This document shows, in pieces, positions 310-58,076 of a stretch of 64,000 nt of DNA. How positions within the stretch are numbered: the first letter of the stretch is position 1; each line of letters begins with the position of its first letter. The stretch lies in NCBI GenBank assembly GCA_964458855.1, contig CAYWJS010000003.1:1957-65956 (forward strand), in the 5' to 3' direction. The translations under genes were made by a program, and so were the position numbers. The notes beneath the pieces were generated by a model. It ran no database searches. It was not told the DNA's origin and saw only the letters and a list, made by a program, of their open reading frames with translations. This DNA is from an uncultured Erysipelotrichia bacterium (GTDB taxonomy: Bacteria > Bacillota_I > Bacilli_A > CAYWJS01).

Positions 310-2919
310 ATGGATTCAAATATTCAATTAAAAAATCAATTTGCCTGGACTTCTTTTTATATGGAGTTTGCTGATAAACTGTTGCCATATAAAAATAATC
401 GTTCGCACCTTCTTGAGTTGTTAAAAGACGTTTATAACGATTTAGGATTGCGCTATCCGTTTATAGAAAAGGACGGTATGCTGATTGACGATATTTGCCC
501 GTTTACCGTATTTGGCTGTTTTAATAAAGGGATTTCCAATGAAAATCGTATTGCTTTGATGAAAGGCATTGGCAGTAAACTCGGTGTTAAGACTTCAGTG
601 CCTACAGAATTTGACGGCATTCCGGTACTTAACAACATGAAGGCTTGGTTTTTCGCCGGTAAAAGTGAGCGAAAAGAAGATGACATTCCCAACCTATGGG
701 ACACATTTGAAGCCGGATTAAACTATGCAGACAATCCGTCAGAAGTCTCCAAGTCAGCATTTATAGCCTGTTATGATAAAGTAAGAAAGCAATTTGGAAT
801 TAAGTGGAATTTAACTATGGGACTGTATTGGATACGCCCCTTTTCCTACTTAAACCTTGATGATCGTAACAGAAGTTATCTGACACAAGATAGCTCTCCT
901 TATTATGCAAGTATTACTAAAATTTCTAACTTAAAGCAGCCTCCAAGTGCAAAAACCTATTTAGATCTCATTACTGTATGTAAAGAAATCTTTGCAAAGA
1001 GCGACAGTCCTTATCACAGTTTTCCCGAACTGTCCCACATAGCATGGGCTACAACAACTTCGGGAGCACGGAATAACAATATCACTTCAACCGCTAATAA
1101 AAAAATAGGCTGGATTTTTCAAGGTAATCCTAAATACTATGATGTTATGGGTGCTATTAAGGATCTTGATGTTGTAACATGGAGCGTAAAGCAATACCAA
1201 AACCAGATCAAAAAAGGCGATCGCGCTTATATATGGGTTTCAGGCCCTGAGGGTGGCATTGTTGCTTCAGGAGTTATTCTCTGTGACCCAGAAATCAGGG
1301 AAAATAATGAGCCTGACCCCTATGATCTTTCTGGCGATATAAGTACAGGAGAACGTCTTGTCGTAGATATTGAACTTACCCAAAAAATAACGGATGCTGT
1401 TATTAAGAGAGAAGATTTCTTAGCGGATGAACGCCTAAAAAACGCAAATATTATTTCTTTCCCAAATGTAACAAATTCTAGATTGACTTCCGAGCAGGCC
1501 GATGTTATAGACAGCATTATCAACGGCACCTATATACGTATAGAGCCAAAGAATTCAGATGAAACATCAGCCCCTTTAAGACGATACTGGATTTATGCCC
1601 CCGGCAGCAATTCTTCCAAATGGGAAGAGTTTTACTCTCAAGGAATTATGGGTATTGGATGGGATGAATTAGGCGACCTTAAACAATACCCCAGCAAAGA
1701 TGCCATGAAAGCCAAAATGAAGGAACTGTATGGCGCTGAATACTCATATATTAACTCAGTCCTTGCCACATGGCAGTTTGCTAATGAGATTAAAGTCGGC
1801 GATATTGTTTATGCAAAAAAAGGCATGCATAAAGTAATCGGGCGTGGCATAGTTGAATCCGACTATATTTTTAACGCAGATCGCGATGAGTATAAACATA
1901 TTCGTAAAATCAAATGGACACATAACGGGGAGTGGGAACACCCGGGACAAGCTGTCATGAAAACCCTTACCGACATAACTCCTTATACTGATTATGTACA
2001 AAAACTAGAAGCGCTCTTTATTGATGATGACTCTGTAGATATTGAAGAAAAAGAAATTGTGTATGAGTCCTACACCGAAGATAACTTCCTCAATGAAGTT
2101 TTCATGGATGCCGAACGTTACAATACTTTGGTTAATCTCTTAAAAACCAAGAAAAACATCATCCTGCAAGGAGCGCCCGGCGTTGGTAAAACTTTTGCTG
2201 CCAAAAGACTTGCTTTTTCCATAATGGGGCAAAAAGATACAAGCCGCGTTATGATGGTTCAATTCCATCAAAGTTACAGCTATGAAGACTTTATTATGGG
2301 ATTCCGGCCAACCAAAGACGGATTTGAGCTTACCCCCGGGCCTTTTTACCAGTTCTGCAAAACAGCACAGGATGACGATGAACGGGATTATTTCTTTATC
2401 ATTGACGAAATTAACCGCGGCAATGTAAGCAAAATTTTTGGTGAGTTGATGATGCTTATAGAAAAGGAAAAACGCGGTGAAAAACTACGCCTTCTTTACT
2501 CCAACGAGTTATTTTCTGTTCCCAAAAATCTCTACATTATCGGTATGATGAATACTGCCGACCGCAGCCTTGCCATAATCGATTATGCTTTGAGAAGAAG
2601 ATTCGCTTTCTTTGAACTCGAGCCTGCTTTTGACTCTGAAGGATTTAAAAAAATTATACAGCAAGCAAACAACCCCAAGTTTAATGCCCTGGTTGAGCAA
2701 ATTAAAGCTTTGAATGACTTTATCTGCAAGGATGAATCCCTTGGCAGTGGGTTCAGAATTGGACACAGTTATCTGTGCACAAATAGTGAGGTAACCGACG
2801 AATGGCTGGAATCCGTTATTAAGTATGAATTGTTGCCTCTTTTAAACGAATATTGGTTTGACGAACCATCCAAAATAGAACAGTGGACAAAAAGGCTGAG
2901 TGAGGTTTTATATGATTAG
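310..2919 (+). CDS. mcrB: McrB-like AAA+ GTPase subunit of a type IV (modification-dependent) restriction system, with a long N-terminal extension carrying two PUA-like (EVE/YTH-type) reader domains
   Basis: ORF track 869 aa; Walker A GAPGVGKT (nt ~2170-2193), McrB signature MMNTADRS, RBS GAGGTG before ATG; N-terminal segments with W/GD/G-rich beta-barrel-like pattern. Confidence 0.85.
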   Translation: MDSNIQLKNQFAWTSFYMEFADKLLPYKNNRSHLLELLKDVYNDLGLRYPFIEKDGMLIDDICPFTVFGCFNKGISNENRIALMKGIGSKLGVKTSVPTEFDGIPVLNNMKAWFFAGKSERKEDDIPNLWDTFEAGLNYADNPSEVSKSAFIACYDKVRKQFGIKWNLTMGLYWIRPFSYLNLDDRNRSYLTQDSSPYYASITKISNLKQPPSAKTYLDLITVCKEIFAKSDSPYHSFPELSHIAWATTTSGARNNNITSTANKKIGWIFQGNPKYYDVMGAIKDLDVVTWSVKQYQNQIKKGDRAYIWVSGPEGGIVASGVILCDPEIRENNEPDPYDLSGDISTGERLVVDIELTQKITDAVIKREDFLADERLKNANIISFPNVTNSRLTSEQADVIDSIINGTYIRIEPKNSDETSAPLRRYWIYAPGSNSSKWEEFYSQGIMGIGWDELGDLKQYPSKDAMKAKMKELYGAEYSYINSVLATWQFANEIKVGDIVYAKKGMHKVIGRGIVESDYIFNADRDEYKHIRKIKWTHNGEWEHPGQAVMKTLTDITPYTDYVQKLEALFIDDDSVDIEEKEIVYESYTEDNFLNEVFMDAERYNTLVNLLKTKKNIILQGAPGVGKTFAAKRLAFSIMGQKDTSRVMMVQFHQSYSYEDFIMGFRPTKDGFELTPGPFYQFCKTAQDDDERDYFFIIDEINRGNVSKIFGELMMLIEKEKRGEKLRLLYSNELFSVPKNLYIIGMMNTADRSLAIIDYALRRRFAFFELEPAFDSEGFKKIIQQANNPKFNALVEQIKALNDFICKDESLGSGFRIGHSYLCTNSEVTDEWLESVIKYELLPLLNEYWFDEPSKIEQWTKRLSEVLYD

Positions 2920-3946
2920 AATTCAAAATATATACTATATGCTTGCTTATGCTTTTCATGTCTTAAATGAAGAAGGCTATAAACAAGTAGCAACTGAAGA
3001 TTTCGAATATACTTCTGATTTATTTGCAGCAATTCTTTCCAAAGGTATTGCCAGCCAAATCAAAAGGGGATTAAGTAGGGAGTATATCAGCAAAACAGAA
3101 GCCGTTATTTCACCTACAGGTAAAATCAATGTCTCAGCCTCCATTGTACAGAATTCCATGCTTAAAAAGAAACTGGTCTGTGATTATGATGAGTTTACAG
3201 AAAACAGTTACTTGAATAAAATACTCAAAACCACTGCAATGCTTTTGATACGCTGTCCGGAAGTATCAACGCAGCATAAAAAAGCCTTAAGGAAAACAAT
3301 GCTTTATTTCAGTAATGTTGATGAAATAAATCCGCGCAGAATTCAATGGTCGAGTATCAGATACCATAGGAATAATGCCACCTATAAAATGCTGCTGAAT
3401 ATCTGCTATCTAGTTATCGAAGGTATGCTAATGACCGAGCAGGACGGTTCCCGAAAGTTGGCCCGCTATGTAGACGACCAGCGTATGCCCAGGCTTTATG
3501 AAAAATTTGTGTTGGAATATTATCGTAGGCATTATCCCCAGTTTAATGCTTCATCCACCATTATTGACTGGGATGTCGACGGTGGAGAAATAGAATATTT
3601 ACCTACTATGAAATCAGATATAACTCTTCGATATCGGGGCAAAACACTCATTATAGACACAAAATACTATAAGAAGACCATGCAGATAAACAGCTTGTTC
3701 AACAGCCGAACAATCCATTCTCACAATTTGTATCAGATATTTACTTATGTAAAAAACATGGATTTAGCTCGTTCGGGAAATATAAGCGGCCTTTTGCTTT
3801 ATGCCAAAACTGATGAAGATATTGTACCGGACAACGATTATATTATCGGCGGTAATCGTATTAGCGTTAAAACTTTGGACTTGAATACTGACTTTTCCAA
3901 CATATCAAAACAGTTGAACGCAATAGTAGAAAAGATGTTATTATAA
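2912..3946 (+). CDS. mcrC: McrC-like nuclease subunit (PD-(D/E)xK) of the McrBC system
   Basis: ORF track 2900..3946 starts at GTG; more likely ATG at 2912 with RBS GAGGT, overlapping mcrB stop (ATGATTAG); N-terminal IRIQNIYYMLAYAF typical of McrC; catalytic-like motif IIDTKYYKK. Confidence 0.8.
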   Translation: MIRIQNIYYMLAYAFHVLNEEGYKQVATEDFEYTSDLFAAILSKGIASQIKRGLSREYISKTEAVISPTGKINVSASIVQNSMLKKKLVCDYDEFTENSYLNKILKTTAMLLIRCPEVSTQHKKALRKTMLYFSNVDEINPRRIQWSSIRYHRNNATYKMLLNICYLVIEGMLMTEQDGSRKLARYVDDQRMPRLYEKFVLEYYRRHYPQFNASSTIIDWDVDGGEIEYLPTMKSDITLRYRGKTLIIDTKYYKKTMQINSLFNSRTIHSHNLYQIFTYVKNMDLARSGNISGLLLYAKTDEDIVPDNDYIIGGNRISVKTLDLNTDFSNISKQLNAIVEKMLL

Positions 3947-9755: not shown

Positions 9756-9835
9756 GAAAGCACCTCTTTTATAAGTAAAATTATATCACTAGTTATAATT
9801 TAAAGAAATGCTTTTAGAATATTTTTTAAAAATAA

Positions 9836-9856
9836 AAGGTGTCACTTTGACACCTT
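9836..9856 (-). terminator. Hairpin terminator overlapping the stop codon of the activase gene
   Basis: aaggtgtc/gacacctt stem flanked by A-run and T-run. Confidence 0.5.
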
Positions 9857-10804
9857 TACAAGCTTTGCCCCATTATCACACTTGTTTCCCCACGAATCAA
9901 TTAGTTCGTGATCTTTATAAACACATATTATCTCACAATTATTAGCACATACCTTGCACTCAACTCCCCGCGTTATAAAATCTATCTCAGCAAGTGAAAA
10001 ATTAAATGGTTTAGGACTCGTTGTATCTTTTGCCATAATAGCAACTCCTAAGGCCCCCATTAAATGTCCATTTTTATCAACATAGATTTTTTCACCAAGA
10101 ATTTTTTCAAAAGCTTGAACAACTCCAATATTTTTGCTTACACCACCTTGAAAAACAATTGGTGGTTTTATATTTTTGCCTTTACCAACATTATTTAAAT
10201 AATTTGCTACAACCGCCTCACAAAGTCCTGCAATAATATCTTCTTTTGAGTGTCCTATTTGGGCTTTGTGGACTAAATCACTTTCTGCAAAAACTGTACA
10301 ACGAGCAGCAATTTTGGTTGGTGTTTTTGATTTTTGAGCCCAAAGGCCAAATTCTTCAACTGGAATACCAAGCCTTCTTGCTTGCGAACTTAAAAAAGAA
10401 CCTGTTCCTGCGGCACACAATGTATTCATAGCATAATCAATAACTATTCCGTTTTCAATTAAAATAATTTTTGAATCTTGCCCACCAATTTCAAAAATTG
10501 TTTTTACATCAGGAAAAATACTTAAGGTTCCAATTGCATGTGCTGTAATTTCATTTTTTACAAGTCCTGCATCAAGAATTGTGCCAATTAGTTTTCGAGC
10601 AGAACCAGTTGTTCCAACATAACTTATCTTAATATTTTTATCACTTACTTGCTTATAAAGTAATTTTATTAAATTTTTGACTGCTTGAATTGGATTTCCT
10701 TCAGTCCAAATATATTCACTAGCAATTATGTTGTTATTTTTATCAACAATTACTCCTTTTGTTGAAATTGAACCAACATCAACTCCCAGTGCATATTCAG
10801 TCAT
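9842..10804 (-). CDS. BadF/BadG/BcrA/BcrD-type ATPase, CoA-substrate-specific enzyme activase (HgdC-like)
   Basis: 320 aa; N-terminal LGVDVGSISTKGVIV actin-fold ATPase motif, GGQDSK, C-terminal Cys cluster. Confidence 0.75.
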   Translation of the reverse strand: MTEYALGVDVGSISTKGVIVDKNNNIIASEYIWTEGNPIQAVKNLIKLLYKQVSDKNIKISYVGTTGSARKLIGTILDAGLVKNEITAHAIGTLSIFPDVKTIFEIGGQDSKIILIENGIVIDYAMNTLCAAGTGSFLSSQARRLGIPVEEFGLWAQKSKTPTKIAARCTVFAESDLVHKAQIGHSKEDIIAGLCEAVVANYLNNVGKGKNIKPPIVFQGGVSKNIGVVQAFEKILGEKIYVDKNGHLMGALGVAIMAKDTTSPKPFNFSLAEIDFITRGVECKVCANNCEIICVYKDHELIDSWGNKCDNGAKLVKVSK

Positions 10805-11873
10805 ATCGCTTTTCCTTTCTCATAAGAAGCATATCATAAAAGGCTTCTAATCTTGTTTTTACACCTGTCTCTGAAGTATGAGCATCAAAACTAAAATATA
10901 AAATGGGAATCTTATAATCATTACTTAAATTTTGCAGTATCGGTATTGCATTAACCTCAGGAGTGCATCCAAATGGTTTGATATGAATTATGCCATCAAA
11001 CTCAAGTTCAGCTAAGATTTTAGTACGAGCAACACTATCAGTTCCATCTGCACCAATTGGATATTTTAAATATTTTCCCGCATTTTTTAATAACTTTTTT
11101 TCTAACTTCGCTTTTTCAAATAAAAGATATGTTATATTCATAAATCTTGTTACCTGAATTCCTTTTTGAGCAAGTTCTTTTTCAATAAAATAATTACTAA
11201 AAGGCTCCATTAATACATATAACTCTCCTAATACTCCAATCCTAATTGGATTTTTAGGTTTATCTGTTTCTATGCTTTTAAAAAGTTTTAAATAGTTTCT
11301 TTTTAACTTTAAAAGATCTATAAATCCTTTAGTGTGTTTTAAATCTTCTAAAAATTTTTTACGCAGTCTTTCAAAACTTCCCTTTTCTTTTTCAAATCAC
11401 ACATTTTCTCGAATATAAAACTCTATTTCATCAAGAATGTAAGCCATTTTAATAGCAAGTAAAACATAATATAAAAACTTAAAAAATGAAAGTTTATTGT
11501 TCAATTTTCTAAAACTTTTAAAAAGAGTAATTGGTGTTACTTTTCCACTGCTACAAATATCAATAAATTCAAAATTATAACCTAAATCTTTTAAAATTTG
11601 CTCTTGAATTTCTCCATAATAACCAAACCTGCAACCACCACCTGCTTGTAAAATAATATCAGCCCCTAACTCCAGTGCTTCTATATAATTTCCTAAGTTA
11701 TATTTAAAAGGAATACAAACAAATTCTGGACTATATTTTGCTCCAAGTTCCAAAGTTTTTTTTGTAATTGGTGGCGGTACTAATACTTCAAAATCAAGGG
11801 TTTTGCGTGCTAAATACTCAAACACAACATGATAACTTCCCATATGCGGAAAAGTAACTTTTTTCTTTTTCAT
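10797..11873 (-). pseudogene. 2-hydroxyacyl-CoA dehydratase-like / DUF2229-type gene interrupted by a single in-frame TGA (minus-strand codon at 11397-11399); ORF-track fragments 11397..11873 and 10797..11210 are one frame
   Basis: Hand translation shows 62 sense codons with no candidate start between the TGA and the downstream Met, including a conserved-looking IRIGVLGELYVL strand. Confidence 0.4.
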
Positions 11874-12799
11874 ACTTTCTCCTCCAAAGTTTTTTTGTTT
11901 TTAATAATATCAATAAAACTTTCAAGACGAGTATGAAGTCCCGCTTCTCCTTGCAACTCATCTAAAACAATTACTGTAAGAGGTATATTTTTGATTTTCC
12001 GAAGACAAATTTCATTAACTAAAGAATCTGGTCCACAAGGAAATGTTGAAACTAAAATAATTCCATCAATTTTATCTTGATATTTACAAATTGCACTAAT
12101 AAGTTCCTTGTTATAAGTCCAATATAATGATCTTGTTACATCTTTTATAAGACTTTCACATTCAATATCTCCAATAAGGTCAGCATAAATTAAAGTTACA
12201 CCAAGACTTTCTAAGTATTTAATAATTGGTTTTCCTAGTAACTCATCGTAAGTATTATAAGGATGACTTACAATCATTATTTTTAAATTATCTGTTTCTT
12301 CTATTAATTTTTCTTGTTCTAACATAAACTCTTCTTTCTTTTTCTTTTCATATTTTTTTGCCAAAAAGTATGCTTTTGTTGTTTTTAAAACTCCACATCT
12401 TAAAAAAAGGCCCATTTTTAAAAATGCCTTAAATTCATTTTCACCCTTTTCATAATCAATGTTATAATCAAGAATTTTTATATTAGGGAACGTATTTCTT
12501 ACAATATCATACATGGCATTAAATTTAACACAGACAACTTCTCTCTTTCCAAAGCTTACGATTCTTGGAACTAGTATGTAATCAACTTTTTCTTTAAGCC
12601 AAAAAACATGTCCCATATAAACTTTGGCAGAAAGACAACTTTCATCAATTGAAAAATTAATTCCGTCCTTTAAAATTTCTTTATTTGTTTTAGGACTCAA
12701 GATAACTTTGCAACCAAGTTCTTTAAAAAAACGTTCCCATAAATATTGATATTTATAAAATAAAAAAGCACGAGGAATTCCTATCTTTATTTTTTCCAT
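11870..12799 (-). CDS. DUF2229-like protein associated with CoA-enzyme activases (dehydratase-like component)
   Basis: 309 aa; N-terminal IGIPRAFLFYKY...FFKELG pattern typical of activase-associated domain; Cys-rich; operonic with activase. Confidence 0.6.
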   Translation of the reverse strand: MEKIKIGIPRAFLFYKYQYLWERFFKELGCKVILSPKTNKEILKDGINFSIDESCLSAKVYMGHVFWLKEKVDYILVPRIVSFGKREVVCVKFNAMYDIVRNTFPNIKILDYNIDYEKGENEFKAFLKMGLFLRCGVLKTTKAYFLAKKYEKKKKEEFMLEQEKLIEETDNLKIMIVSHPYNTYDELLGKPIIKYLESLGVTLIYADLIGDIECESLIKDVTRSLYWTYNKELISAICKYQDKIDGIILVSTFPCGPDSLVNEICLRKIKNIPLTVIVLDELQGEAGLHTRLESFIDIIKNKKTLEEKV

Positions 12800-12863
12800 A
12801 AAAAAACACCTCTAGTTTTTATATATTCAAGACTCGTTTAAACTTATAACTTATTGTAAAAAA

Positions 12864-12890
12864 AAGATGACATTAAAAATGTCATCTTTT
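12864..12890 (-). terminator. Rho-independent terminator after ldh
   Basis: aagatgacat/atgtcatctt stem followed by T-run on minus strand. Confidence 0.55.
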
Positions 12891-12893
12891 GTA

Positions 12894-13814
12894 TTAATTA
12901 ACATTTAATTTTTTTATTTCATTTTTAATAATCTTTATTGACTGCTTAAACTTTTTAAGTTCACTTTCCGAAAGTTTAATATCAATAATACTTTCTACAC
13001 CTTGAGAATTTATAACGGCTGGCATTCCAATAAATAAATCATACTTCTTGTTATAGGTAGATACTGTAAGAATTGAATTTTCATCATCTAAAATAGCATT
13101 AGTAATTCTTAAAAGTACCATCCCTATTGCATAATAAGTTGCACCCTTTTTCTTAATAATTTCATAAGCTGCATTTTTAACTTTATTAGATATCTCTTCC
13201 AGAGAAGAAATATCTAAAATTTCCGTCATTAGGCGAGTTCCCACATAAGCATTTGACCAAGAAACAAATTCACTATCACCATGCTCTCCCATTACATAAG
13301 CATGAACATTTTTAGGATTTATATTTAATTTATCTCCAATTAGGTAGCGAAGTCGAATAGTATCTAAAGCAGTTCCTGTACCAATTACTTGGGAAGGTTT
13401 AAGATTTGAATGCTTATATGTAAGATAGGTCATAATATCAACAGGATTTGTGGCAACTAAAAAAATACCGTTAAAACCTGATATCATAACTTTCTTAATA
13501 ATTTCCGCAAAAATTTTATCGTTTTTATATAAAAGATCAAGTCTTGTTTCTCCTTCTTTTTGTTTGGCACCCGCTGAAAGAACAATTATACTTGCATCTT
13601 TACAATCTTTATAATCTCCCACTTTTATTTTAATCTTACTTGGTGAGAACGCTAGGCAATGATTTAAGTCCATTACCTCACCTATTACTCGCTCTTTATC
13701 AATATCAATTAAAACAAGTTCTGTAACTTTTGTTCTTTGATTTAAAAGTGCATAAGCATAGCTCATCCCCACATTACCGCAACCAATAATTACAACTTTA
13801 TTTTGCTTAATCAT
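12894..13814 (-). CDS. ldh: L-lactate / L-2-hydroxyacid dehydrogenase (LDH/MDH family)
   Basis: 306 aa; GCGNVGMSYA Rossmann motif, GEHGDS catalytic loop. Confidence 0.85.
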   Translation of the reverse strand: MIKQNKVVIIGCGNVGMSYAYALLNQRTKVTELVLIDIDKERVIGEVMDLNHCLAFSPSKIKIKVGDYKDCKDASIIVLSAGAKQKEGETRLDLLYKNDKIFAEIIKKVMISGFNGIFLVATNPVDIMTYLTYKHSNLKPSQVIGTGTALDTIRLRYLIGDKLNINPKNVHAYVMGEHGDSEFVSWSNAYVGTRLMTEILDISSLEEISNKVKNAAYEIIKKKGATYYAIGMVLLRITNAILDDENSILTVSTYNKKYDLFIGMPAVINSQGVESIIDIKLSESELKKFKQSIKIIKNEIKKLNVN

Positions 13815-14250
13815 TAACTTTTTTACTCCTAATTAAGTAATTTATTCCCTCTCCTATTAGTCCTAAAATTATACCAATTGCAAGAACAAATAAATATGAA
13901 ATAATACTTGTTAAATCCGCCCAACCAGTATCATTATTTTTTATTAAAATTATAAAATAATAAGTAATACTAATTACATTTGTAAGCATAAATACAGGGG
14001 AAAAAATCTCCATTCCAAAATAACCAAATGAAGAAATTCCCGAAATAACAATTGAAAGTAGGAAAAAAGATAAAATATTTTGAAAAGATAACTTAGGGAT
14101 TAAAATTCTTTGCCCTATTATTAAAGCTAAAAAGTTAATGATAAAAACAAGTAAAAAAACATATAACCATTTTTTTGATTTTGGTTTTGGAAGCAAAATC
14201 ATCATAATTACCCTCCTTAAATTTATTATGTCAATATCTAAAAATATCAT
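13807..14250 (-). CDS. Small multi-pass membrane protein, hypothetical
   Basis: 147 aa, four hydrophobic helices; no family recognised. Confidence 0.4.
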   Translation of the reverse strand: MIFLDIDIINLRRVIMMILLPKPKSKKWLYVFLLVFIINFLALIIGQRILIPKLSFQNILSFFLLSIVISGISSFGYFGMEIFSPVFMLTNVISITYYFIILIKNNDTGWADLTSIISYLFVLAIGIILGLIGEGINYLIRSKKVND

Positions 14251-35252: not shown

Positions 35253-35639
35253 TTATGATTTTGGTTTAAATAAAATTGCAACTAAAAAAGCAAAGAAGAT
35301 GGCACTGGTTATTCCTGCTGTTGTAAGGTCAAACATTTTCATAGCAATCCCAAAAAAACCATATTGATCAGTGTGATCTAAGGCACTATGAATCAAGGAG
35401 TGACCAAAACTTGTAATTGGAACAAGGGCTCCTCCACCACCAAACTCAACAATTCTGTCATAAATACCAAAAATATCAAGACCAGCACCTAAAACAACAA
35501 ATAAACTTGTAACATGTCCAGGCGTAAGAAGTGTATTTTCCAAAATTAATTGTCCAATAACACAAGTAATTCCAGCTACTAAAAAAGCATTTATATAATC
35601 CATTATATCGCCTCCAAACTTACTGCATGAGCAATACAA
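35253..35639 (-). CDS. spoVAEB: Stage V sporulation protein AEb (SpoVAC/SpoVAEb family membrane protein)
   Basis: ORF track 128 aa; likely start at internal Met (MDYINAFLVAG...) overlapping spoVAD stop; glycine-rich TM pattern. Confidence 0.75.
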   Translation of the reverse strand: MYCSCSKFGGDIMDYINAFLVAGITCVIGQLILENTLLTPGHVTSLFVVLGAGLDIFGIYDRIVEFGGGGALVPITSFGHSLIHSALDHTDQYGFFGIAMKMFDLTTAGITSAIFFAFLVAILFKPKS

Positions 35640-36610
35640 GGAATAGTTTCTTTTTGTTGAATCATAGTGGGACTAAAGAGAGCCCCTGTTGCAACTAAAA
35701 GAATTCTTTTTAATTTCCCTGTTTCTAATCTATTTTTCAAAAACCCAAAAGTAACTAAAGCAACACAAGCTGAACCACTACCCCCAGAAAATACTTCTTG
35801 GTTTTTCAAATCATAAAGCATTAGTCCACAATCATTATAATTTTTAGAAATATCCAATTTATATTCCTTTTTTAAATAATCAACCAAAACTTTACTTCCA
35901 ATATCACTTAAATCTCCTGTTACAATTAAATCATAATAATCAGGTGTTCTGTTTGTGTCTGTTAAATGTTGATTAATAGTATCTGCTGCAGCAGGTGCCA
36001 TAGCACCTCCTAAATCAAAGGGATTATTCATTCCCATATCAATTACTTTTCCTATTGTTACTGATTCAAGCTTAATTTTTGCTTTTTTCTTAGATAAAAG
36101 AACTGATGCAGCACCTGTTGCAGTAAAGGTTGCTGTCTGTGGTTTTTGTCCTCCATATTCATTAGGATAACGATATTGACGTTCAGCTGTAGAATTGTGG
36201 GATACTGTTGAACAAATTACATTATTTGCATTTTTACTATTAACTAAAATACCTCCAATAATTAAACTTTCCACGATATTTGCACAAGCTGCATAAACCC
36301 CTAGAAAAGGAAACCCAAATTCACGAGCAACATAATTAGAACTTACATTTTGGTTTAATAAATCCCCTGAGACAAAAAGATCAATATCAAATTTTGTAAG
36401 ATTAGTTTTACTTAAAACTTTAATAATACTTTCTTTTAATAATTTTCTTTCAGCAAGTTCATAGTTTTTCTCTTCGCAATATACATCACTAAAAGTTTTA
36501 TCAAAATATTTACCAAGTGGTCCCTCACTCTCCATTGGACCTGCTATAGTTGTAGCTTCATTTATATAAACACCATTTTTAAATGTTATTGTTTGCTCTC
36601 CTTGTTTCAT
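35603..36610 (-). CDS. spoVAD: Stage V sporulation protein AD (thiolase-like fold)
   Basis: 335 aa; position and overall pattern between spoVAC and spoVAEb. Confidence 0.85.
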   Translation of the reverse strand: MKQGEQTITFKNGVYINEATTIAGPMESEGPLGKYFDKTFSDVYCEEKNYELAERKLLKESIIKVLSKTNLTKFDIDLFVSGDLLNQNVSSNYVAREFGFPFLGVYAACANIVESLIIGGILVNSKNANNVICSTVSHNSTAERQYRYPNEYGGQKPQTATFTATGAASVLLSKKKAKIKLESVTIGKVIDMGMNNPFDLGGAMAPAAADTINQHLTDTNRTPDYYDLIVTGDLSDIGSKVLVDYLKKEYKLDISKNYNDCGLMLYDLKNQEVFSGGSGSACVALVTFGFLKNRLETGKLKRILLVATGALFSPTMIQQKETIPCIAHAVSLEAI

Positions 36611-36611
36611 T

Positions 36612-37067
36612 TTATCCTCCCATCACAAAGTATCTAATTATTCCAAAAATATATGCACTTACTACTCCATAAACAATTACTGTTCCTGCTAGCTTAAACA
36701 TATTTGTACCAATTCCGTAAACTAAACCTTCTCGTTTATGTTCTAAAGCTGCACTTGTCATAGAATTTGCAAACCCGGTAATGGGAATAATTGTTCCTGC
36801 TCCTGCCCACTGCCCAATTTTATCAAAAACACCAAAACCAGTTAAAAAACTTGCAAGAGCAATGAGAGTAACAATCATTGGAGTTGATGCTGCTTTTGCT
36901 GAAATATTTAAAACTTTGCTATAAAATTGAATAAGAAATTCAGCAAAAACACCAATTAAACCACCTACAATAAATGCTCTAAATACTTTTGTTCCCATCT
37001 TTTTGGGGGGATAAAAAGTTTTTACATAATCTTTATAACTTTCTTTTTTCACATAATCACTCCTCAA
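36612..37067 (-). CDS. spoVAC: Stage V sporulation protein AC
   Basis: ORF track starts at TTG 37067; likely start GTG 37052 after RBS GAGGAG; membrane protein of SpoVAC family. Confidence 0.8.
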   Translation of the reverse strand: MRSDYVKKESYKDYVKTFYPPKKMGTKVFRAFIVGGLIGVFAEFLIQFYSKVLNISAKAASTPMIVTLIALASFLTGFGVFDKIGQWAGAGTIIPITGFANSMTSAALEHKREGLVYGIGTNMFKLAGTVIVYGVVSAYIFGIIRYFVMGG

Positions 37068-37108
37068 TTGTTAGTATGTAAAAAATATCTTTAAAAATAC
37101 AAAAAAGA

Positions 37109-37819
37109 TTACACAATTTGTAATCTTTTTCGTAAATCATTTATTACTTTGTTTTCCATTCTTGATACTTTTACTTGTGAAATTCCGAGTCTTTTTGCAA
37201 CCTCAACCTGAGTTTGTTCTAAATTATATCTCATTTTAATTAATAATTTTTCAGTTGGGTCAAGCTTTTCTAATTCTTCAGTCAGCTCTAGTTTTTCAAA
37301 TTCACGTTTTGCACTCTCATCTAAAATTGTATTGTGAAGTGTATTAGTCTCATTATCATATGCTTGATCCATACTTAAAATATATTCTTTTGATTCAAGT
37401 GCATCCAAAATTTCACTCTTTGAAACTCCAAGATAATTAGTTATTTCATTTATAGTTGGAGTTCTCATATATTTTTGAGTAAGAATTTCTGTTGCTTCTT
37501 CTATTTTTTGAGCAATTGCAATAATATTTCTATTATATTTTACAAGTCTTTCATTTCTTAGGTATTGTCTTACTTCACCTAAAATTATAGGAAAAGCATA
37601 GGTTGTAAGTTTTGCTCCATGTGCTTTATCATAATTTTTTACAGCTTTAATAAACCCTATAACAGCAACTTGATACAAATCATCCTCATTATAACAGGTT
37701 CGAAACCTATTAATAATAGAATAAATTAAACCCTCATTACTTTTAATTAGCTCAGCTAAAGCTTCTTTTTCATTATTCTTAGCCCTCTCTACTAATTTAT
37801 CTACATTTTGTTTAGACAT
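37109..37819 (-). CDS. sigF: Sporulation sigma factor (sigma-F by operon position after spoIIAA-spoIIAB)
   Basis: 236 aa; sigma-70 regions 2 and 4; 8-nt overlap with spoIIAB. Confidence 0.8.
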   Translation of the reverse strand: MSKQNVDKLVERAKNNEKEALAELIKSNEGLIYSIINRFRTCYNEDDLYQVAVIGFIKAVKNYDKAHGAKLTTYAFPIILGEVRQYLRNERLVKYNRNIIAIAQKIEEATEILTQKYMRTPTINEITNYLGVSKSEILDALESKEYILSMDQAYDNETNTLHNTILDESAKREFEKLELTEELEKLDPTEKLLIKMRYNLEQTQVEVAKRLGISQVKVSRMENKVINDLRKRLQIV

Positions 37820-38252
37820 TTTCTAAAACCTCAGCTAATTTTAAATTTTTGGTAATTATAAGTTCTGTTCCTTTATTTGAACTATTTATTTTTAAATCAT
37901 CAGAAAAAGTTTCAATAATTGTAAATCCCATTCCTGACCTTTCTTTATCAGGCTTTGATGTATACATTGGTTGTCTTGCAAGTTCAATGTTTTCAATTCC
38001 ACAGCCTTCATCTTTTACAACGATTTTAACACTTTTATCTTTTATACTAACTTCTAAAATTACTTGTTTTTCAGGGTCTTCTTTATACCCATGAATAATT
38101 GCATTTGTTACAGCTTCTGAGATAATTGTTTTAATTTCTAAAATTTCATCAACAGTTGGATTTAAAGGGGCAATAAAACTACTAACAGCCATTCGCGCAA
38201 ATAATTCATTTTCACTTTTTGCATCAAAAATAATTTTTATTTTATTTTCCAT
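37812..38252 (-). CDS. spoIIAB: Anti-sigma F factor (GHKL-type Ser kinase)
   Basis: 146 aa; HATPase_c motifs (E...N...G.GLGF-like). Confidence 0.85.
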   Translation of the reverse strand: MENKIKIIFDAKSENELFARMAVSSFIAPLNPTVDEILEIKTIISEAVTNAIIHGYKEDPEKQVILEVSIKDKSVKIVVKDEGCGIENIELARQPMYTSKPDKERSGMGFTIIETFSDDLKINSSNKGTELIITKNLKLAEVLENV

Positions 38253-38253
38253 A

Positions 38254-38595
38254 TTAAACCCCCATTAACTCTATCGCCATAATTTCTGAATCTGCTTCAC
38301 AAACCAAATCAAACAAGCCACTCATAGAAAATAAATTTCTTAAATGCGCGTTTAAGCCACAAACAACAATTTTCCCGCCCCTACTTTCAACTTGTTTATA
38401 TCTACCCAAAATTACTCCAAGCCCACTGCTGTCCATAAAGTTAACTTCTCGAAAGTTTAAAACTAAAAACTTTATTCCGTACTCATCAATAAGTGGTGCA
38501 ACTTTTTTGCGAAATTTTCCAGCACTGTGATCATCTAATTCCCCGCGAATTCTTACAAATAAAATTCCCTTCCGAAACTCCATGTCTATATCCAT
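38254..38595 (-). CDS. spoIIAA: Anti-sigma F factor antagonist (STAS domain)
   Basis: 113 aa; phospho-serine motif FMDSSGLGVILGRY. Confidence 0.85.
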   Translation of the reverse strand: MDIDMEFRKGILFVRIRGELDDHSAGKFRKKVAPLIDEYGIKFLVLNFREVNFMDSSGLGVILGRYKQVESRGGKIVVCGLNAHLRNLFSMSGLFDLVCEADSEIMAIELMGV

Positions 38596-41135: not shown

Positions 41136-42293
41136 CTAAGAGGGTATTTTACCTGTTAACATTTCTACTAAGTAGCGGTTAAATAAATCCCAAATATTTG
41201 CCTTTTCTATTTTTTCTAAGGTAATTACTGGTACTGAAAGCAATACTTTATTATTATCTATAACATTTAAAGTACCTATTCTTGCTCCTGCTTTTAAAGG
41301 AACAGTAATTTTATCAATTTCTAATTTATAAGTTACATTTCTTTTTGGTTTTCCTTTTTGATTTAAAATGTATAAATCATCTTCTAGTACTGCTTTAACT
41401 GTTGTTTTTTTAGCTTTTGCAACAAAAATTTCCTTTAACACTTGCCCTTTTGATAAAGTTTTTTCAACTTCATATTGCTGAAAAGCATAATCTAAAAGTT
41501 TCGTTGTTTCATAATTACGATAACTTTTATCAGCAATTCCCATTACTACTGATATAACACGTAAGTTATTCCTTTTTGCAGTTGCAGTTAAACAATATTT
41601 TGATTTTGTTGTATGTCCGGTTTTTATCCCGTCTACCCCTTCATAGAAACGAACTAAGTTATTTGTATTTACAAGCCAAAATTTTTCATCTGTATCTTGT
41701 CTTAAATAATCTTCATAGATTGATGTGTATTTTAAAACCTCTGGATATTTTAATACTAATTCCCTTGCCATTACTGCAAGATCATAAGCAGATGAATAAT
41801 GGTTTTCTTCATCAAGACCTGATGAATTTACAAAGTTAGTATTTTTTAAACCTAATTCCTTTACTTTTTTATTCATTTGTTTAACAAATTCCTCTTCTGT
41901 TCCAGCTACTCGTTCTGCTAAAGCAACTGTGGCATCATTAGCACTAGCAATTGCAACTGCTTTAAATAAATCCTCAACACTCATTATTTCACCTGGTTCA
42001 AGGTAAATTTGACTTCCACCAAAAGAAGCAGCATTTGCACTTACCTGAATTTTTTCATCCCAAGTAAGTCCACCAGATTTAATATCTTCTAAAATTAACA
42101 TCATACTCATTATTTTTGTCATTGATGCTGGTGCAAGTCTTTTATGAGGATCCTTTTGGTAAAGAATTTCACCCGTTGTTACTTCCATTAAAATTGCACT
42201 TTCTGATTTTGGTGTTAAATCAAGCGTTTCTCCTTTTACTGGAAGCGGCATCATTAAAAGAATTAACACCAAAATAAACATTTTCCTTTTCAT
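41136..42293 (-). CDS. dacF: D-alanyl-D-alanine carboxypeptidase (S11, DacF-like)
   Basis: ORF track to 42344; likely start ATG 42293 after RBS GAGGTG giving signal peptide MKRKMFILVL; SMTK (SxxK), SAN, KTGHT motifs. Confidence 0.8.
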   Translation of the reverse strand: MKRKMFILVLILLMMPLPVKGETLDLTPKSESAILMEVTTGEILYQKDPHKRLAPASMTKIMSMMLILEDIKSGGLTWDEKIQVSANAASFGGSQIYLEPGEIMSVEDLFKAVAIASANDATVALAERVAGTEEEFVKQMNKKVKELGLKNTNFVNSSGLDEENHYSSAYDLAVMARELVLKYPEVLKYTSIYEDYLRQDTDEKFWLVNTNNLVRFYEGVDGIKTGHTTKSKYCLTATAKRNNLRVISVVMGIADKSYRNYETTKLLDYAFQQYEVEKTLSKGQVLKEIFVAKAKKTTVKAVLEDDLYILNQKGKPKRNVTYKLEIDKITVPLKAGARIGTLNVIDNNKVLLSVPVITLEKIEKANIWDLFNRYLVEMLTGKIPS

Positions 42294-42340
42294 ACATAAC
42301 ACCTCAATAAATGTTATGCTTAAAAAATTGTAAAAATGAA

Positions 42341-44254
42341 TCATATTTTTCTACCATAAATATAGCCACCAATAATTATAACTCCAAAAAATAGTGACAA
42401 TTTAATCAATAAATGTTGTGAATTATTATTCTTTTCATTTTGAATGTTACTTTCTTTTAGGGTTTCTTTTTCTGTTGATTTCTTGCTTGTATTTTTAAGT
42501 AAGTTGTTTTCTCCAAGCGAAACAGTAACCGTTAAAGTGTCGTTTTTTCTTATTTCAGAGGGAAAGATATTAATTATTTTTCCTTTAGGAACTTTTTCTA
42601 AATATTTATAAAGAAGTTGAGTTTTAACATTTTTGTTTTGTAACCATTTTTCCAAATCAGAATATTTTTCAAATTTTGGGATTTTTATTTTTCCACTTGA
42701 AATGATTACTTCTAAAACATCATTTTTATTAAGAACTTTTTCATCATAAGAAAGCACTTTATTTTTCTCTTCTAAACTCTCTACTATTTTATATTTAACA
42801 TTTATTCCCTGTTTTTTTGCCCATGTATTTATTTCTTCTTTAGACCACTCATAAATATTCGGTATAGTAAAATTTCCTTTCGATAAAAGAACTTCAAAAG
42901 TTTCACCTGTATTTAGCTTTTGCTTATTAACGTCAATTACTGTATCTTTGGGTTCAATGCTTTCTATTATTTGAAATTTAGGATTAACCCTATTTTGAAA
43001 TGCCCAACTTTGAACTTCTTCTTTTTTCCAACCTATCATATTAGGAACATTTACTTCTTTTGGTAATACTTTTAAAGTTAAATTTATTTTAAGCTTATCA
43101 ATTAAAATACTTATTGGTTGAATTCCTATTTTTTTAGTATCAACTTCTTCTTTTATCTTAATACTATTTTTAGGATTTGTACTTTTAACATAATCATAAA
43201 TATTAAACTTATCTCCCCAATATATTTTTATTTCATTTTTAACTTCAATTTTATCTCTTGTACGAAAACGATAGAAAACTTTTTTAGTCGTCTCATCTTT
43301 TATATATGGAGCAAGCACATCATTTTCATAAGTGTCTAAATAAATTTTTTCAATATTGTAATACTTAAACATTTTTTCGCGCACACGATACTCTTTTTCA
43401 ATTTTTACTTCTCTTATTAATGATGATGTTACTTTCTCAAGGGATTCTTTCCATGGTTCCCATTTTGGATTTACTAAATTTTCTGCTTTTACTTCGTGAG
43501 TAAAACTATATTCTGAATAATAGTTGCTCATAAATTGATAGTTTCCTTTTATTTGGGCATAAATTCCAGAGTCTAAAGAGTTAGAATCTAAAAAATTAAG
43601 AGTGTATTTTTTAGTTGCAGTTCCTTTATCATATAAATAAATTTTTATTTTTATTTCATCAATATTATAAAATGCTTTCAAATCAATTAATATTGTGCCA
43701 TCATTTTCTAAAAAAGACATGTTTTCCTCTGCATTATTATTGTTTATAAAGTCTTTAAACTCAGGATTACATTTAGTACAACTTACACTATAATTTATTT
43801 TTTTATTATTTACATAAATATTTATTTCGGGAATTCTTAAAGCATTATATGAGCCTCGAACATCAGTAATATAAATATATCTTACTTTTTTCATGTTTCG
43901 ATATTTATAAACATTTCGAGTATCTATTTCATTAAACTCATTTTTTAAAATCTCTTTTTTTTGCCAAGAACTAAATTCTCCCCAAATAAAATCATCATCC
44001 AAACGATAAGGATATTCTTTTGGATTTTTCCCATTATAATAGTAATCATTTGTATAATTAATCTGTTCTTTATACCACTTCCATTTTATAATACTTTGAA
44101 CATTAACAAGCTCACTTGGTATTACTTTTTCTTCACTCCAATCACTAAAATTACTCCATTCGGTATAATAAACACTACTTTCTGCTTGTACTTTTATTGG
44201 TTTTAATAAAACAAATAATAGTAACAAAATTTTTAATACTTTTTTTACATTCAT
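42341..44254 (-). CDS. Secreted, C-terminally membrane-anchored protein with three PASTA-like repeats, hypothetical
   Basis: 637 aa; signal peptide ending VQA, W/Y/K-rich N-terminal region, three ~65-aa repeats with PASTA-like pattern, C-terminal TM LFFGVIIIGGYIYG. Confidence 0.5.
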   Translation of the reverse strand: MNVKKVLKILLLLFVLLKPIKVQAESSVYYTEWSNFSDWSEEKVIPSELVNVQSIIKWKWYKEQINYTNDYYYNGKNPKEYPYRLDDDFIWGEFSSWQKKEILKNEFNEIDTRNVYKYRNMKKVRYIYITDVRGSYNALRIPEINIYVNNKKINYSVSCTKCNPEFKDFINNNNAEENMSFLENDGTILIDLKAFYNIDEIKIKIYLYDKGTATKKYTLNFLDSNSLDSGIYAQIKGNYQFMSNYYSEYSFTHEVKAENLVNPKWEPWKESLEKVTSSLIREVKIEKEYRVREKMFKYYNIEKIYLDTYENDVLAPYIKDETTKKVFYRFRTRDKIEVKNEIKIYWGDKFNIYDYVKSTNPKNSIKIKEEVDTKKIGIQPISILIDKLKINLTLKVLPKEVNVPNMIGWKKEEVQSWAFQNRVNPKFQIIESIEPKDTVIDVNKQKLNTGETFEVLLSKGNFTIPNIYEWSKEEINTWAKKQGINVKYKIVESLEEKNKVLSYDEKVLNKNDVLEVIISSGKIKIPKFEKYSDLEKWLQNKNVKTQLLYKYLEKVPKGKIINIFPSEIRKNDTLTVTVSLGENNLLKNTSKKSTEKETLKESNIQNEKNNNSQHLLIKLSLFFGVIIIGGYIYGRKI

Positions 44255-55021: not shown

Positions 55022-55855
55022 TTATTTCATTGCTTTTTTTATTTTTTCCTTTAAAGAATCAGTAATATCAACTAAAGGAAGTCTAGGAACTCCAACATCA
55101 ATTCCTTTTTGGCGTAATGCAAATTTGATTGGAGCTGGATTTGGTTCAGCAAATAACAACTTAATTATTTTTGAAAGTTTATTCATCAACTTTTCATTTT
55201 CAGTCTCTATTACTTCTCTAAGTTCAGGACCAATAATATGACTTGCAACACTTACAACACCTTCTGCCCCAAGTTTTACAAAATCAAGTGTTGTAATATC
55301 ATCTCCACTATAAACGTAAAGATCAGTATGTTCAATTAATTTTTTTACTGTTTCCAAATCATTGTGGGAGTATTTCACAGCTTTTACATTTTCTAGTTTT
55401 GCAAGTTTTACTAATGTTTCATATTCAATATTTACAACTGAACGACCTGGAATATTATAAACCATTATGGGGGTTCGAACAGCGTCACTAATTTGTTTGA
55501 AATGTTCATAAATTCCTTCCTGACTTGGCTTGTTATAATAAGGGGCAACAACTAAAAATCCATCTACCCATATTTTTTCAATTTTTTTTGCAAAGTGAAC
55601 AGTTTCTTTTGTATTGTTAGTTCCTACTCCAACAATTAAAGGAATTCTTCCTTTTAAAATTTTCTTTATATATTTTACAAATTTAATTTTCTCTTTTTCA
55701 TCTAAAGTAGGAGCTTCTCCTGTTGTTCCAAGGATAACTAAACTATCAGTACCAGTATTAATTAAGTGCTCCACTAATTCTTTTGCCACCTCATAGTTAA
55801 TATCACCATTTTCTTTAAACGGAGTAACCATTGCGGTTACAAGTTTACCATACAT
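55022..55855 (-). CDS. dapA: 4-hydroxy-tetrahydrodipicolinate synthase
   Basis: 277 aa; N-terminal VTAMVTPF and GTTGE motifs. Confidence 0.85.
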   Translation of the reverse strand: MYGKLVTAMVTPFKENGDINYEVAKELVEHLINTGTDSLVILGTTGEAPTLDEKEKIKFVKYIKKILKGRIPLIVGVGTNNTKETVHFAKKIEKIWVDGFLVVAPYYNKPSQEGIYEHFKQISDAVRTPIMVYNIPGRSVVNIEYETLVKLAKLENVKAVKYSHNDLETVKKLIEHTDLYVYSGDDITTLDFVKLGAEGVVSVASHIIGPELREVIETENEKLMNKLSKIIKLLFAEPNPAPIKFALRQKGIDVGVPRLPLVDITDSLKEKIKKAMK

Positions 55856-55857
55856 AT

Positions 55858-57039
55858 TTATCCTCCTAATTTAAAGTAATCATGAATAAGATTTAAGGAT
55901 TTAGCTAAATCTTTTTTTTCTACTAATAACCAAACTGTAGTATAACTATTACTAACATTTAAAATATTGATATCATTTTTTAATAAATAAGAAATTGCTT
56001 TAATAATAAAATTGCTGTTATAGTTTGGGTTGTTATTTACAAGGGCAATTTTGGCACATTCTTTAACAAGAGATACTTTTATTTCTTTTTTTTCAAAAGT
56101 TTTATTTAAAATTTCACTATCTATATCATTAATAACAAATTTTATTTCTTTTGGTGAAAAGACTAAAAAATCTATTTCTATGTTAAATTTCGAAAGAATT
56201 TTGAAAAATTCATCCTGTTTTAGGTGAAGATTGTCTTTAAAATTAATTACTAAATATAATAGATTTTCAATTGAACCTAAACCAATTATTTTTTTCTTTT
56301 TATAATTTATATGTTTTACAACTGTTCCTGGATCATTGTTTAAAGCTGAACGAAGTTCAATTTCAATATTATGCTCTTTTGCATATTCAACTGCTTTATA
56401 ATGCACTACTTTTGCTCCTTGATATGACATATTAATAACTTCGTCGTAACCAATTGTACGAATTAGTCTTGCATCTTTTACTTCTTTTGGGTTTGCTGTC
56501 ATAAGACCTTGAACATCAGAATAAATTTTTACTCTTTTGGCACCAAATTGGTGTGCTAAAACAACTGCTGAAAAATCACTTCCTCCCCGCCCCAATGTTG
56601 TTACTTTTCCCTCTTCATCTATTCCTTGAAACCCCGGAACTACCAAAACATCATATAAATCTAAATATTTATTTAAATATTCTTTATTTACTTTTATTAT
56701 ATTTGCATTATTAAATTCACTATTTGTTGCAAACCCAAGTTCATAGGTATTAATGGCAATGCTTTTTATATTTTTATTTTTTAATTCACTTGAAAGAACT
56801 ACCGTAGAAATTGTTTCACCAACACTCATCAATAAATCCATTTCTTGCAGACTGGCATTTGGGGCAAGACGTCTTAAACTATCTGTTGCATAATAATCTG
56901 GATACCTTCCAATAGCTGAAACAACAACAATTACTTTATTGTTTTGTTTTATTAAACTTTGAATTATTTTTACAACTTTTTCTCGCATTTTTTTAGTTTT
57001 TAGACTTGTTCCACCAAACTTTATTACTTCAACATTCAT
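55858..57039 (-). CDS. lysC: Aspartate kinase
   Basis: 393 aa; N-terminal KFGGTSL motif, C-terminal ACT-like region. Confidence 0.85.
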   Translation of the reverse strand: MNVEVIKFGGTSLKTKKMREKVVKIIQSLIKQNNKVIVVVSAIGRYPDYYATDSLRRLAPNASLQEMDLLMSVGETISTVVLSSELKNKNIKSIAINTYELGFATNSEFNNANIIKVNKEYLNKYLDLYDVLVVPGFQGIDEEGKVTTLGRGGSDFSAVVLAHQFGAKRVKIYSDVQGLMTANPKEVKDARLIRTIGYDEVINMSYQGAKVVHYKAVEYAKEHNIEIELRSALNNDPGTVVKHINYKKKKIIGLGSIENLLYLVINFKDNLHLKQDEFFKILSKFNIEIDFLVFSPKEIKFVINDIDSEILNKTFEKKEIKVSLVKECAKIALVNNNPNYNSNFIIKAISYLLKNDINILNVSNSYTTVWLLVEKKDLAKSLNLIHDYFKLGG

Positions 57040-58076
57040 GATTTATTTTTTCCTTTAAGCAAATTTTTTGAAATTAAAAGTTCTGCAATTTGAACTGCAT
57101 TAAGTGCCGCGCCCTTTAACAAATTGTTAGAAACAACCCAAAGTGCGCAAGCATTATTATGCTTTAAATCCATACGAACACGTCCAACATAAACAAAAGG
57201 ACTATCTATAACATCTCTTGGTACTGGATAACTTTGTGTTTTTGGATTATCTATTAAAATTACTCCTTTGGAACTATTTATAATGCTTTTCAATTTAATT
57301 AAATCCATTGGTTTTTCAGTTTCAAGATAAATACTTTCAGAATGACCCACTTTTACAGGAACCCTTACACAAGTTGCACTAATTTCAATGCTTGGGTCTT
57401 TGAAAATTTTTTGTGTTTCATAAACCATTTTCATTTCTTCTTTGGTATAATTATTATCCAAAAATTCATCTACCTGAGGAATTACATTATAAGCAATTTT
57501 ATAGTGCTTAATGTTTGATTTAATTGGTAAAATTTTAGGTTCTGTATCACCTTCAATTTGTGATTCTAGTTCTAAAAGAGCATCTTTTCCTGCTCCACTA
57601 ACAGCTTGATAGGTAGAAACAATAATTTTTTTAATTTTATATTCTTTATGAATATTATTTAAAGCAACTACAAGTTGAATAGTAGAACAATTTGGATTTG
57701 CAATAATTCCTTGGTGGTAAACTAAATCTTCACCATTTACTTCTGGTACAATTAAAGGAACTCCTTTTTCCATGCGAAAAGCACTTGAATTATCAATTAC
57801 TAATACTCCTTTATTACGTGCATAATTTACATACTCTTTTGCAAGACTGCTTAATACCGCAAAAAAAAGAATATCAATTCCAGAAAACGAGTCTTTTGTA
57901 AGTTCTAAAACATCTATTTCTTGATCCTTAAATTTTATTTTTTTACCAAGACTTTTTTCACTTGCAAAAAGTTTTAACTTTCGTATTGGGATACTCGTTT
58001 TTTCTAAACACTTTATTATCATTTCTCCAACTAAACCTGTTGCACCAACAACTCCTATTACATAGTCTTTACTCAT
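57036..58076 (-). CDS. asd: Aspartate-semialdehyde dehydrogenase
   Basis: ORF track to 58130; likely start ATG 58076 (MSKDYVIGVVGATGLVG) after RBS AGGAG. Confidence 0.85.
   Translation of the reverse strand: MSKDYVIGVVGATGLVGEMIIKCLEKTSIPIRKLKLFASEKSLGKKIKFKDQEIDVLELTKDSFSGIDILFFAVLSSLAKEYVNYARNKGVLVIDNSSAFRMEKGVPLIVPEVNGEDLVYHQGIIANPNCSTIQLVVALNNIHKEYKIKKIIVSTYQAVSGAGKDALLELESQIEGDTEPKILPIKSNIKHYKIAYNVIPQVDEFLDNNYTKEEMKMVYETQKIFKDPSIEISATCVRVPVKVGHSESIYLETEKPMDLIKLKSIINSSKGVILIDNPKTQSYPVPRDVIDSPFVYVGRVRMDLKHNNACALWVVSNNLLKGAALNAVQIAELLISKNLLKGKNKS

Follow-up and report, generated by a model that had tools for sequence, protein, structure and literature searches.

The characterised members of the DUF2229 family are the lipid ester reductases PlsA/PlsR and Ger, which work without a CoA-transferase (PMC13159169, PMC12838417). 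Both are members of the benzoyl-CoA reductase / 2-hydroxyacyl-CoA dehydratase (BCR/HAD) superfamily and, under anoxic conditions, reduce glycerolipids at the sn-1 ester (PMC13159169, PMC8788747, PMC12838417, PMC9702350, PMC10191378). PlsA/PlsR is the pair CPE1194/CPE1195 of Clostridium perfringens, with single-gene forms of PlsA in Enterococcus faecalis, Lactococcus cremoris and Bifidobacterium longum; Ger is represented by Tmari_0479 of Thermotoga maritima and SHJ90043 of Desulfatibacillum alkenivorans. A BBD architecture with short D and H matches has been published for both Ger and PlsA/PlsR (PMC13159169, PMC12838417, PMC8788747), and in Ger these short matches follow the BBD core (PMC13159169). 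Here we analyse a locus within a 64,000-nucleotide stretch of bacterial DNA (contig CAYWJS010000003.1, positions 1,957 to 65,956 of the forward strand, assembly GCA_964458855.1; this whole stretch is the window), in which a lactate dehydrogenase (LDH) gene, ldh, lies beside three genes, Red1, Red2 and Act, for two DUF2229-type subunits and a BcrAD_BadFG-type activase. An earlier note on this DNA had called the DUF2229 type poorly characterised, which is true of the split form found here, for which searches of the literature by domain name and by NCBI product name found nothing, but not of the type as a whole, since PlsA/PlsR and Ger have been characterised (PMC13159169, PMC12838417).

In this locus an ordinary LDH probably sits next to a cassette in decay, an uncharacterised split form of the ATP-driven reductases of PlsA/Ger type. 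The region is two unrelated units: ldh, and a self-contained Red1-Red2-Act cassette with overlapping genes (4 nt between Red1 and Red2, 8 nt between Red2 and Act) and its own terminator. All four genes lie on the minus strand, and their co-directional order and coordinates agree with those of the earlier note (Table 1). The dehydratase-like gene that it described as interrupted is Red2, and the cause is a single in-frame TGA. The 94-nt spacer that separates ldh from Red1 contains a terminator-like hairpin.

Composition and relatives of the Red1-Red2-Act cassette

Profile searches bore out the family assignments made before (LDH family, DUF2229, HGD-D-like and BcrAD_BadFG). Red1 matches the DUF2229 profile PF09989 almost from end to end (E 9e-47, profile positions 1-217 of 218) and has no match to PF06050. 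Red2 matches PF09989 at residues 24-74 (E 7e-7) and PF06050 at residues 285-349 (E 3e-7, profile positions 277-342), and Act is a single PF01869 domain (E 7e-49) that scores 196 bits against TIGR00241 (cutoff 125). No NCBIfam model matched Red1 or Red2 at E <= 0.01. The two Red subunits are paralogous to one another (hhalign probability 93% over 288 aligned columns). Joined in the order Act, Red1, Red2, the three products align over 98-100% of their length, at about 30% identity, to fused proteins of about 1,400 residues in which two PF01869 domains are followed by PF09989; Act aligns best (43-49%) to the second ATPase domain of these proteins, its Cys-rich tail included. Within the BCR/HAD superfamily, the intact cassette represents the DUF2229 branch in split form.

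The cysteines expected of Fe-S proteins, which had been proposed as a check on the dehydratase assignment, are in place: three invariant residues in each Red subunit and, in Act, C130 and C169 as expected for a bridging cluster. Act has four further cysteines (C283, C286, C290 and C309) in its last 40 residues (window 9842-10000), where the ATPase domain is followed by the pattern E-C-x2-C-x-N-x-C-E-x-I-C...W-G-N-x-C. Across the split members and 10 fused proteins, Red1 C55/C90/C255, Red2 C53/C81/C303 and Act C130/C169/C283/C286/C290/C309 are invariant, as are about 30 further residues per subunit. The four tail cysteines, which are thus shared by the split and fused families, may bind a further metal ion or Fe-S cluster; to our knowledge, a Cys-rich tail of this type is absent from classical HgdC-type activators.

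We propose that a homodimer of Act, bridged by a [4Fe-4S] cluster on Cys130 and Cys169, would hydrolyse ATP and so drive an electron of low potential into a heterodimer of Red1 and Red2. Red1 and Red2 would each bind a [4Fe-4S] cluster through their three invariant cysteines, and the two clusters of the heterodimer would then support ketyl-radical reduction and dehydration. By analogy, the likeliest reaction would be one on membrane glycerolipids, in which the sn-1 acyl ester is reduced to a vinyl or alkyl ether. A lipid ester can be reduced without a CoA-transferase or a 2-hydroxyacid dehydrogenase, which would explain why no such partner is conserved beside the cassette. We put the chance that the split family makes lipid ethers at even or slightly lower; it is held there by subunit identities of 22-32%, by the presence of one activase domain, not two, and by a comparison confined to architecture-matched fused proteins. 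A search of the literature on Anaeroplasma and plasmalogen gave nothing usable.

Several points weigh against an independent ldh beside a dead cassette of PlsA/Ger type. The identity of Red1 to the DUF2229 module of the fused proteins (27-32%) and that of Red2 to their C-terminal 370-400 residues (22-27%, E down to 4e-27) are low, and validated PlsA orthologues are 41-55% identical to the C. perfringens proteins (PMC12838417). The fused proteins in our comparison were architecture-matched sequences, unnamed or derived from metagenome-assembled genomes (MAGs), a set that excludes the validated Q8XL48, Q8XL47, Q835P9 and AGL49404. PlsA and Ger have a 'BB' tandem, whereas the split family has one activase domain. 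As to ldh, its predicted separate transcription has the hairpin as its one basis, and no consensus promoter was matched in the ldh-Red1 spacer. Lastly, low-level read-through of UGA may take place in strains that carry the TGA.

The Red1-Red2 pair was compared in 84 loci from other genomes (80 species representatives and 4 others). Its two genes are adjacent and in the same order in 83 of these, the remaining locus ending at a contig edge, and Act lies directly 3' of the pair in about 56. Some 25 loci (e.g. L029, L040, L054 and L063) have no activase within the fetched flanks, and such a pair either uses an activase encoded elsewhere or is itself decaying. The flanking genes differ wholly between lineages: the most frequent other neighbour family is found in at most 18 of the 84 loci, and none of the neighbours is a conserved functional partner across lineages. 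Because the pair stays constant while its flanks differ, we regard the cassette as an autonomous module. The physical partnership of Red2 with the activase is supported by protein P0262 (723 residues, on a 19.5-kb ENA contig), a natural Red2-Act fusion in the same order as the split genes.

Some neighbours recur within the gut 'Bacilli'. Eighteen MAG loci of this group that lack an adjacent activase (L027, L030, L035, L036, L038, L047, L051, L055, L057, L070, L071, L074, L077, L079, L080, L083, L087 and L089) encode membrane proteins of about 220 residues past Red2, mostly two in tandem, and one of these proteins gave a Pfam match, which places it with the queuosine-precursor transporters of the Vut_1/YhhQ family. 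In three further Bacilli MAG loci (L009:11010-11942, L018 and L019) a gene for a QueG-like epoxyqueuosine reductase lies 3' of the cassette.

A different function for the split family would make it a third functional class in the DUF2229 branch of the ATP-driven [4Fe-4S] radical enzymes, acting on another non-CoA substrate and not as an ether-lipid synthase. We consider this unlikely. A possible lead is the repeated adjacency to Vut_1/YhhQ-like transporters (18 loci) and QueG-like genes (three loci), and this adjacency to queuosine-related genes may be lineage synteny only. Were this function real, the window's copy would show one species in the course of losing it.

We give little credence to a second functional alternative, in which the intact family is a small-molecule reductase of the type of the double-cubane cluster protein (DCCP/YjiM) and not a lipid enzyme. 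The AlphaFold2 model of Red1 (pLDDT 86.8) has its best Foldseek matches to DCCP (6eno), HadC of 2-hydroxyisocaproyl-CoA dehydratase (3o3n_B) and BzdO of the benzoyl-CoA reductase BzdNO (8s02_B), all at a TM-score of about 0.6, and the DCCP structures 6eno and 7yyl head the list (E 1e-8). Like DCCP with DCCP-R (E. coli YjiM/YjiL type), the cassette is a stand-alone reductase with its own dedicated ATPase. However, the TM-score to HadC (0.62) is equal or higher, and at the sequence level the fused DUF2229 proteins are much the closer homologues. In DCCPs, a motif of seven cysteines (bioRxiv 10.1101/2022.07.06.499078) serves an [8Fe-9S] site in a homodimer, whereas Red1 and Red2 are two paralogues with three invariant cysteines each. 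The lack of any NCBIfam match noted above also covers the DCCP model NF040772, if that model is in release 20.0.

Alleles of the cassette within the species

The TGA is the only defect in Red2: there is no frameshift, and the frame continues to a normal stop. Homologues of Red2 are uninterrupted proteins of 356-366 residues, up to 67% identical. The site of codon 159 is Gly in 17 of 17 aligned homologues, within an R-x-N-[IV]-G-F-E motif, and Pro or Ala, never Cys, in the fused relatives. GGA is the commonest Gly codon in the window, so one G-to-T change explains the stop. The truncated product of 158 residues retains Cys53 and Cys81 and loses Cys303, and the next possible start is Met222; the stop would thereby cut off the third cluster ligand of Red2. 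Red1, Red2 and Act otherwise still have every family-invariant residue, which argues that inactivation was recent.

An exact look-up of Red1 retrieved the same locus from ten other samples, at 99.8-99.98% DNA identity. Two of them, SRR8925797 and SRR8925798 (loci L001 and L003, Logan assemblies), carry the same TGA, although these two and the window's own assembly are possibly from the same or sister samples. The other eight have a deletion of 1,409 bp with 2 nt of microhomology at its junction, a length that allows for the 2-nt overlap and was checked against the shift of rlmN. The deletion takes Red2 from codon 154 on and all of Act except the last 164 nt (stop included), and it joins codon 153 of Red2 to the tail of the activase gene to give a product of 160 residues. 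This product is recorded on 43 contigs and the 158-residue product on 2. Sample ERZ2647901 contains deleted (L006/L101) and undeleted (L091) alleles together, and the locus is therefore polymorphic within one community; the undeleted contig L091 (926 bp) begins some 30 nt past the TGA site and so is uninformative on the stop.

A search of 5.8 billion protein clusters found no intact allele, the best match being 66-67% identical, and JGI metagenome contigs gave no hit to exact patterns across the TGA site or inside the deleted segment. On the alleles in hand, each with a nonsense codon or the deletion, the cassette is predicted to be non-functional in this species; it is a pseudogene cluster, which the earlier note had missed. 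A further conspecific protein, P0125 (470 residues, on a 21.9-kb ENA contig), is a chimera of Red1 and truncated Red2 with an altered N-terminus and a frameshifted junction, and is either one more allele in decay or the result of indel errors in the assembly.

Decoding of the TGA, either as selenocysteine or, through recoding or programmed read-through, as Gly or Trp, would leave a working cassette in strains with the full-length allele. The otherwise perfect frame, the retention of all family-invariant residues and the recurrence of the TGA in three assemblies speak for it, although these assemblies may share an origin, as said above. We nevertheless hold it to be highly improbable. TGA ends 10 of the 58 open reading frames (ORFs) of the window and Trp is encoded 104 times as TGG, so the genome uses the standard code. 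Nowhere else in the 64 kb does an in-frame TGA separate two long ORF segments, and the alternative codes 4 and 25 were rejected on these grounds. Selenocysteine at codon 159 was rejected as well: the aligned residues are Gly, Pro or Ala, the region has no Rfam match, and the fold 3' of the TGA is no better than that of shuffled sequence (z -1.5), with no hairpin standing out as a selenocysteine insertion sequence. No suppressor tRNA is present in the window. Most conspecific genomes have, moreover, deleted the region, and its function is therefore dispensable.

The ldh gene and the surrounding sequence

The product of ldh has Ldh_1_N and Ldh_1_C domains and scores 377 bits against the L-LDH equivalog model TIGR01771 (cutoff 303.55) and 399 bits against NF000824. 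Its closest solved structures are all bacterial L-LDHs (4q3n, 4lmr, 3pqd and 1ldn, E 1e-101 to 1e-92). Compared with a fermentative L-LDH such as that of Geobacillus stearothermophilus (1LDN), it keeps the QKEGETR, DTxRxR and GEHGDS motifs and shows no notable difference. The hairpin past its stop codon is followed by a T-run and has a dG of -13.3 kcal/mol (z -6.0), and none of 200 shuffled sequences was as stable; a palindrome scan listed the palindrome of this hairpin on the plus strand. The gene is uninterrupted in all conspecific contigs that span it, including those of cassette-deleted strains, and LDH, RlmN and TrpRS are neighbours of Red1-Red2 in none of the 84 loci of other genomes. 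Because it fits a standard L-LDH model, is followed by a hairpin, has no counterpart beside the pair elsewhere and is kept where the cassette is deleted, ldh is independent of the cassette. By these predicted features it is an ordinary fermentative NAD-dependent L-LDH with its own terminator, and a neighbour of the cassette, not part of it.

The earlier note had implied a unit of LDH and activase-dependent dehydratase, and had named an ordinary, separately transcribed ldh as the finding that would undo it; at the level of prediction, the equivalog match and the hairpin with its T-run are that finding. In such a unit the LDH would make a 2-hydroxyacid, and an activase-dependent 2-hydroxyacyl-CoA dehydratase would dehydrate it after its conversion to a CoA ester, as in a lactoyl-CoA dehydratase pathway. 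We find this barely credible. The genes are adjacent and co-directional, an activase is present, a C-terminal stretch of 65 residues in Red2 matches HGD-D and HadC, and the fold of Red1 is HadC-like. Yet Red1 is a full-length DUF2229 protein without an HGD-D match, the cassette is broken in every genome sampled, and the evidence on ldh given above separates the two. Nor was any CoA-transferase family found by Pfam profile searches among the ORFs of at least 100 residues in the window, in agreement with what had been noted before, or among the conserved neighbours in other genomes. The window thus offers no new LDH-linked dehydratase or fermentation pathway: its LDH is of the ordinary kind, and the cassette next to it is dead.

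Finally, that the stop is a sequencing or assembly error in an intact gene has a negligible chance, for although it differs by one base from the commonest Gly codon, the NCBI contig shares this base with two Logan assemblies from separate runs, and eight other samples have an independent, much larger lesion at the same locus.

Table 1. Features of the ldh and cassette region, in window positions
Feature	Position	Strand	Basis or remark
ldh, NAD-dependent L-lactate dehydrogenase, 306 aa, intact	12894-13814	-	TIGR01771, NF000824, PDB matches
Terminator-like hairpin, 13-bp stem, then T-run	12853-12890	-	4 nt past ldh stop; RNA fold
Red1, DUF2229 subunit, 309 aa, intact; Cys55/Cys90/Cys255 invariant	11870-12799	-	PF09989
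Red2, PlsR-like HGD-D/DUF2229 subunit, 358 codons, pseudogene; Cys53/Cys81/Cys303 invariant	10797-11873	-	PF06050 and PF09989
In-frame TGA in place of Gly159 (GGA to TGA)	11397-11399	-	Translation, alignment
Act, single-domain BcrAD_BadFG electron-transfer ATPase, 320 aa	9842-10804	-	PF01869, TIGR00241
Second terminator-like hairpin, on Act stop codon, T-rich tail	9835-9857	-	dG -12.3 kcal/mol, z -3.65
1,409-bp segment missing from most conspecific genomes	10006-11414	.	BLAST vs L002, L004, L005, L006; junction sequences

In the direction of transcription, ldh is preceded by an ORF for a multi-pass membrane protein of 147 residues (13807-14250) and followed, past the spacer, by Red1, Red2 and Act; 3' of Act come rlmN and then genes for a PP2C phosphatase and a PASTA kinase. 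The membrane ORF has no family match and overlaps the start of ldh by 8 nt, and the two may be co-transcribed. In other assemblies it starts later, which gives a product of 131 residues.

Elsewhere in the window, three regions (35253-38595, 41136-42344 and 55022-59521) hold endospore genes: those for SpoVAC, SpoVAD and SpoVAEB, a SpoIIAA-SpoIIAB-sigma-F-like operon, a gene for a DacF-like carboxypeptidase, and genes for a DpaA/DpaB-like dipicolinate synthase with asd, dapA and aspartokinase. Alanine racemase and PASTA-domain proteins are also encoded. From this gene content the organism looks like a walled, spore-forming member of the Bacillota, though its NCBI label is 'Tenericutes/Mycoplasmatota bacterium'. 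A McrBC-type restriction system lies at 310-3946, where a McrB-like AAA_5 ATPase with an N-terminal EVE domain is followed by the McrC component.

Comparison with known reductase and dehydratase systems

With HgdAB/HgdC, HadBC/HadI, FldBC/FldI and LcdAB/LcdC the cassette shares a paralogous heterodimer, three-Cys [4Fe-4S] sites, here predicted, and a separate ATP-dependent activase. Its fold is near that of the 2-hydroxyacyl-CoA dehydratases, as the Foldseek match of Red1 to 3o3n_B indicates, and a profile search of the PDB with Red2 gave a marginal match to HadC (3o3m_B, E 5e-4). Unlike these dehydratases, neither Red1 nor Red2 has a full-length HGD-D match, the activase bears the extra Cys-rich tail, and the conserved neighbours in the 84 loci include no CoA-transferase and no 2-hydroxyacid dehydrogenase.

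Members of the split Red1-Red2-Act family number in the thousands and come from Clostridia and uncultured gut Bacilli/'Tenericutes'. Its single-activase organisation is an uncharacterised variant that is already abundant in databases under generic names, with thousands of its genes labelled "2-hydroxyacyl-CoA dehydratase" or "acyl-CoA dehydratase activase-related". Because the closest characterised relatives are lipid ester reductases, these labels probably mislead metabolic reconstructions of gut anaerobes.

Like PlsA/PlsR, the cassette comprises a BcrAD_BadFG activase, a DUF2229 module (Red1) and a DUF2229/HGD-D mosaic of about 360 residues (Red2, which is PlsR-sized), arranged as a stand-alone operon without a CoA-transferase in anaerobes (PMC12838417). 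Unlike PlsA/PlsR, where Act1-Act2-Red1 is followed by Red2, the split family uses three genes in the order Red1-Red2-Act. With Ger it shares the superfamily, the D module (Red1), the same D...H mosaic (Red2) and, presumably, ATP-driven electron injection, whereas Ger, with its two activase domains, is fused into one polypeptide and makes saturated alkyl ethers. If the activity is shared, three small proteins with one activase would offer a simpler system for radical chemistry of the plasmalogen or ether-lipid type than the 160-kDa fusions.

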